The DNA's letters: not shown here
Text below: a report on this DNA, generated by a model with database tools, continued
DNA from: Candidatus Omnitrophica bacterium UBA6253
GTDB taxonomy: Bacteria > Omnitrophota > Gorgyraeia > Gygaellales > Profunditerraquicolaceae
Assembly: GCA_002441245.1 (NCBI GenBank)
Contig: DJVP01000008.1
Span: 234,540-298,539, forward strand
Length of the DNA stretch: 64,000 nt
Direction: 5' to 3'

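Follow-up and report, generated by a model that had tools for sequence, protein, structure and literature searches.

The giant ORF runs in a single frame for 7,835 codons without a stop, from nt 40496 to the end of the window (residues are numbered by codon from that position, the Met at nt 40499 being residue 2), and is annotated as one gene in the 100% identical NCBI contig JAQUMA010000002.1 (GCA_028718365.1). At its N-terminus lie a hydrophobic stretch and a Peptidase_C39 domain (E = 6.5e-11). Searched exhaustively, the first 1,000 residues retrieved 292 relatives, labelled Candidatus Omnitrophota or Ca. Gygaella obscura; the stronger matches share about 45-69% identity across the first ~280 residues and diverge beyond, and many of the relatives are 2,000-7,000 aa long and interrupted by contig ends. 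In an alignment of 132 sequences (the window and 131 family members), conservation of the catalytic-type Cys and His of the C39 domain is 98%. The ORF is otherwise nearly devoid of Cys (0.1% of 7,835 residues), the conserved catalytic-type Cys being among the few. The gene order T2SSF-T2SSF-giant recurs in two related DNA sequences, L031 and L035, and the neighbourhood in the window is as follows.

472-17373, plus strand: radical SAM cluster, at least seven radical SAM genes, four with B12-binding domains and three with SPASM
18467-22111, minus strand: divergent operon of FIST sensor, HisKA-HATPase_c kinase and REC-GGDEF response regulator
5' of the giant ORF: Tad/Flp-type cluster of parvulin, RcpC/CpaB, secretin, TadZ-TadA fusion, pilin-like ORFs and two T2SSF genes
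26197-28353, plus strand: the TadZ-TadA fusion, 719 aa, a ParA/MinD-like ATPase (TadZ-like) joined to a T2SSE secretion ATPase (TadA-like)
31334-33106, plus strand: ORFs of 50-110 aa between a 763-aa ORF and the Tad inner-membrane genes

The small ORFs are probably Flp/pseudopilin genes, those at 31516 and 32062 weakly matching a class III (type IV pilin-like) signal peptide. The unannotated 763-aa ORF (28794-31085) contains a direct repeat of ~115 nt (29266-29379 and 29539-29652, 86% identical), seen as secondary blastn matches of the compared sequence L032 to the window. Annotation of L032 also places a 64-aa fragment of an IS200-like transposase (Y1_Tnp; 39078-39272, plus strand) in the ~1.5-kb gap, lacking long ORFs, that separates the giant ORF from the second T2SSF gene. 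The divergent operon adjoins tRNA-Glu and the Tad cluster, directly upstream of both, and could regulate the locus or supply phosphoryl groups to the giant's REC module. The radical SAM cluster, which also encodes a polysaccharide deacetylase, a GDSL lipase and GT2 and PMT_2 (GT-C) glycosyltransferases, may serve to modify glycans or lipids.

The initial annotation placed HEAT-like, REC, HTH-like and GNAT domains in the last 1.8 kb of the window. The REC domain is secure (Pfam PF00072, residues 7392-7478, E = 3.4e-19, 69.5 bits against a cutoff of 30.2), its closest solved relative being a 120-aa CheY (6er7, E = 1.8e-15). The Asp pair (D7396/D7397), acceptor Asp (D7440) and Lys-Pro (K7484) are in place as claimed, the hydroxyl residue being Ser (S7468) rather than the Thr reported. 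The GNAT core is likewise confirmed by PF00583 (E = 1.5e-9) and PF13508 (E = 2.7e-9), each above its cutoff, by motif A (RGQGIG) and by matches in the PDB and NCBIfam to GNATs only. The remaining two are plausible but not established. Profile and PDB sequence searches with the HEAT-like segment (7257-7384) yielded no match even at E<=10; modelled in isolation, it forms a seven-helix bundle (pLDDT 72.8) whose Foldseek neighbours are alphaRep, armadillo and 14-3-3 solenoids (best E = 0.34). The wHTH-like segment (7510-7576) has an H-E-H-H-E-E topology in a low-confidence model, and its HTH matches are all sub-threshold.

A short motif recurs at the borders between these domains. The giant ORF contains 17 SSP tripeptides against 1.6 expected, and an unbiased scan ranks SSPV, SSSP and SSPI as its three most enriched 4-mers, at 40-68x expectation. 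SSP[V/I/A] is found 14 times in residues 5161-7835 (mean 0.17, maximum 3 in 5,000 shuffles) but never in the 5,160-aa head, the motif-free N-terminal part, nor in the remaining ORFs of the window, which total 11,833 aa. In its extended form the motif reads [GAS]-[SAT]-S-S-P-[VILA], the sequence on either side not being conserved, and sites lie 41-401 aa apart, the size of single domains. All five borders in the last 1.8 kb carry the motif (nt 62252, 62648, 63011, 63224 and 63617). Around REC it lies three residues ahead of strand beta-1 and right behind helix alpha-5, and module K aligns with a free-standing CheY such that residue 2 of the one matches residue 2 of the other. Since the motif codons differ between sites (TCT TCA CCG, AGT AGC CCT and TCC AGC CCG, for example), selection acts on the peptide rather than on repeated DNA.

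The comparison covered three tails and four tail fragments. SSP is retained at the same borders in the orthologous fragments P0017 (61% identity), P0018 (51%) and P0001 (81%), while the flanks drift. Identity of the window to P0001 holds at 81% through module I to ~5 aa beyond a motif, where the sequences become unrelated, so that module content switches at the motif. The related protein P0002 has a REC 73% identical to that of the window and differs in its remaining modules; its motif lies 7 aa behind a full-length GGDEF domain, flanks a methyltransferase-like module and precedes REC by 2 aa. P0083, a distant member with a 52% identical N-terminus, has 11 [AST]SSP[LVIA] sites from residue 4514 on against two in the preceding 4,500 aa. 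P0090, from Ca. Gygaella obscura, is syntenic with the window and 7,074 aa long; SSP[VI] is absent from its whole length. Its most enriched 4-mer is DNGN (43x expectation), and DNG[ND], again with varying codons, marks six borders (0.09 DNGN expected), among them the following.

Behind an M54-like metalloprotease module
2 aa past HisKA-HATPase_c
3 aa ahead of REC
Again past REC

With HisKA-HATPase_c and REC as separate modules, P0090 holds a complete two-component pair in one ORF. One 4-mer serving all borders of a protein, and another in a different lineage, is a better fit to a lineage-specific factor that recognises the motif than to generic linkers.

The contig JAQUMA010000002.1 (225,124 bp, same organism) ends at window ~56,170, residue ~5224, exactly at the border of head and motif-punctuated tail; the window's assembly extends beyond this point. 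Variation of the tail between strains or a fault of assembly may explain the break, and the tail of the window has no match at >=90% identity in the protein database. A chimera is nevertheless unlikely, since head and tail share one contig in both P0083 and P0090 and GC content is level across the junction. Flanking this border are two HExxH zincin-type motifs, AHEATHV at residue 4648 (nt 54434-54454) and SHEVGHL at 5345 (nt 56525-56545), neither supported by Pfam; they could be metalloprotease modules and are candidates for processing enzymes.

Several modules open with export signals. Module B, after SSSPI, begins with the Sec-type signal-peptide-like sequence KAIARFMVLPLLAMGLSLAAPSLTIAQ|S. 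Module I, after SSSPV, begins with seven Arg/Lys followed by the strongest TM segment of the giant protein, which looks like a signal anchor, and then by a domain similar to Tse3, a T6SS muramidase (E = 0.0045 in the PDB, with the region of the catalytic Glu aligned). P0083 has a signal-peptide-like start behind its motif. Two modules of P0090 (L035) open 1-4 aa past DNG[ND] with canonical twin-arginine signals; no other match to [ST]RR.F[LIV]K occurs among 169 sequences examined.

P0090 residues 5088-5115: SRRTFLK followed by AAVLALVV
P0090 residues 5788-5825: TRRDFIK followed by LLALSVLL

With such signals right behind the motifs, the modules look like separate pre-proteins.

We tentatively favour, at a little under an even chance, a model in which the giant is a putative polyprotein, cut in the cytoplasm at border motifs acting as processing sites, after which each module would be sorted by its own signal. 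To our knowledge, all characterised C39 domains are cytoplasmic. The positive-inside rule at TM 6981 puts the Tse3-like domain on the non-cytoplasmic side. Were the chain left uncut, REC, wHTH and GNAT would be on that side as well, away from phosphodonors and acetyl-CoA, a conflict that processing would remove. Similarly, the Tat signals of P0090 need a cytoplasmic start, yet lie behind ~5,000 aa that hold a single strong TM segment. Against the model, characterised C39 enzymes cleave after Gly-Gly, residues that form turns make up both the SSP-type and the DNG[ND] motif, some modules amount to short spacers of low complexity, in P0083 the motif occurs in tandem, and the sample is small. Internal Tat motifs, moreover, can function in uncleaved dual Sec/Tat proteins. 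The main rival, an uncleaved, membrane-woven chain with the motifs as insulator linkers, is less likely than this model. Release of the modules in prey, as MARTX-like effector cargo, is improbable. More doubtful still is a modification sequon, for which the PMT_2 GT-C gene (15232-17373) speaks but against which DNG[ND] does, as it lacks Ser and Thr. That the pattern is an artefact is very improbable.

Processing at the border motifs, our preferred reading, is open to experiment: the motifs make it testable whether and where such giants are cut. Neither they nor the signals behind them are described in the main texts of West-Roberts et al. 2023 and Nielsen & Lui 2026, and so far as these show they are new. 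The domain string itself is of a type already known in Omnitrophota giants, and the ORF has the C39 architecture of both studies. A receiver domain in a giant protein had been thought highly unusual, a view that does not hold for this lineage: CheY-like receiver, GGDEF, GNAT and HEAT_2 domains are listed by West-Roberts et al. 2023 (10.1101/2023.11.21.568195), and PF00072 and PF00583 occur in 105 and 93, respectively, of the 916 long proteins of Nielsen & Lui 2026 (10.64898/2026.06.07.730766).
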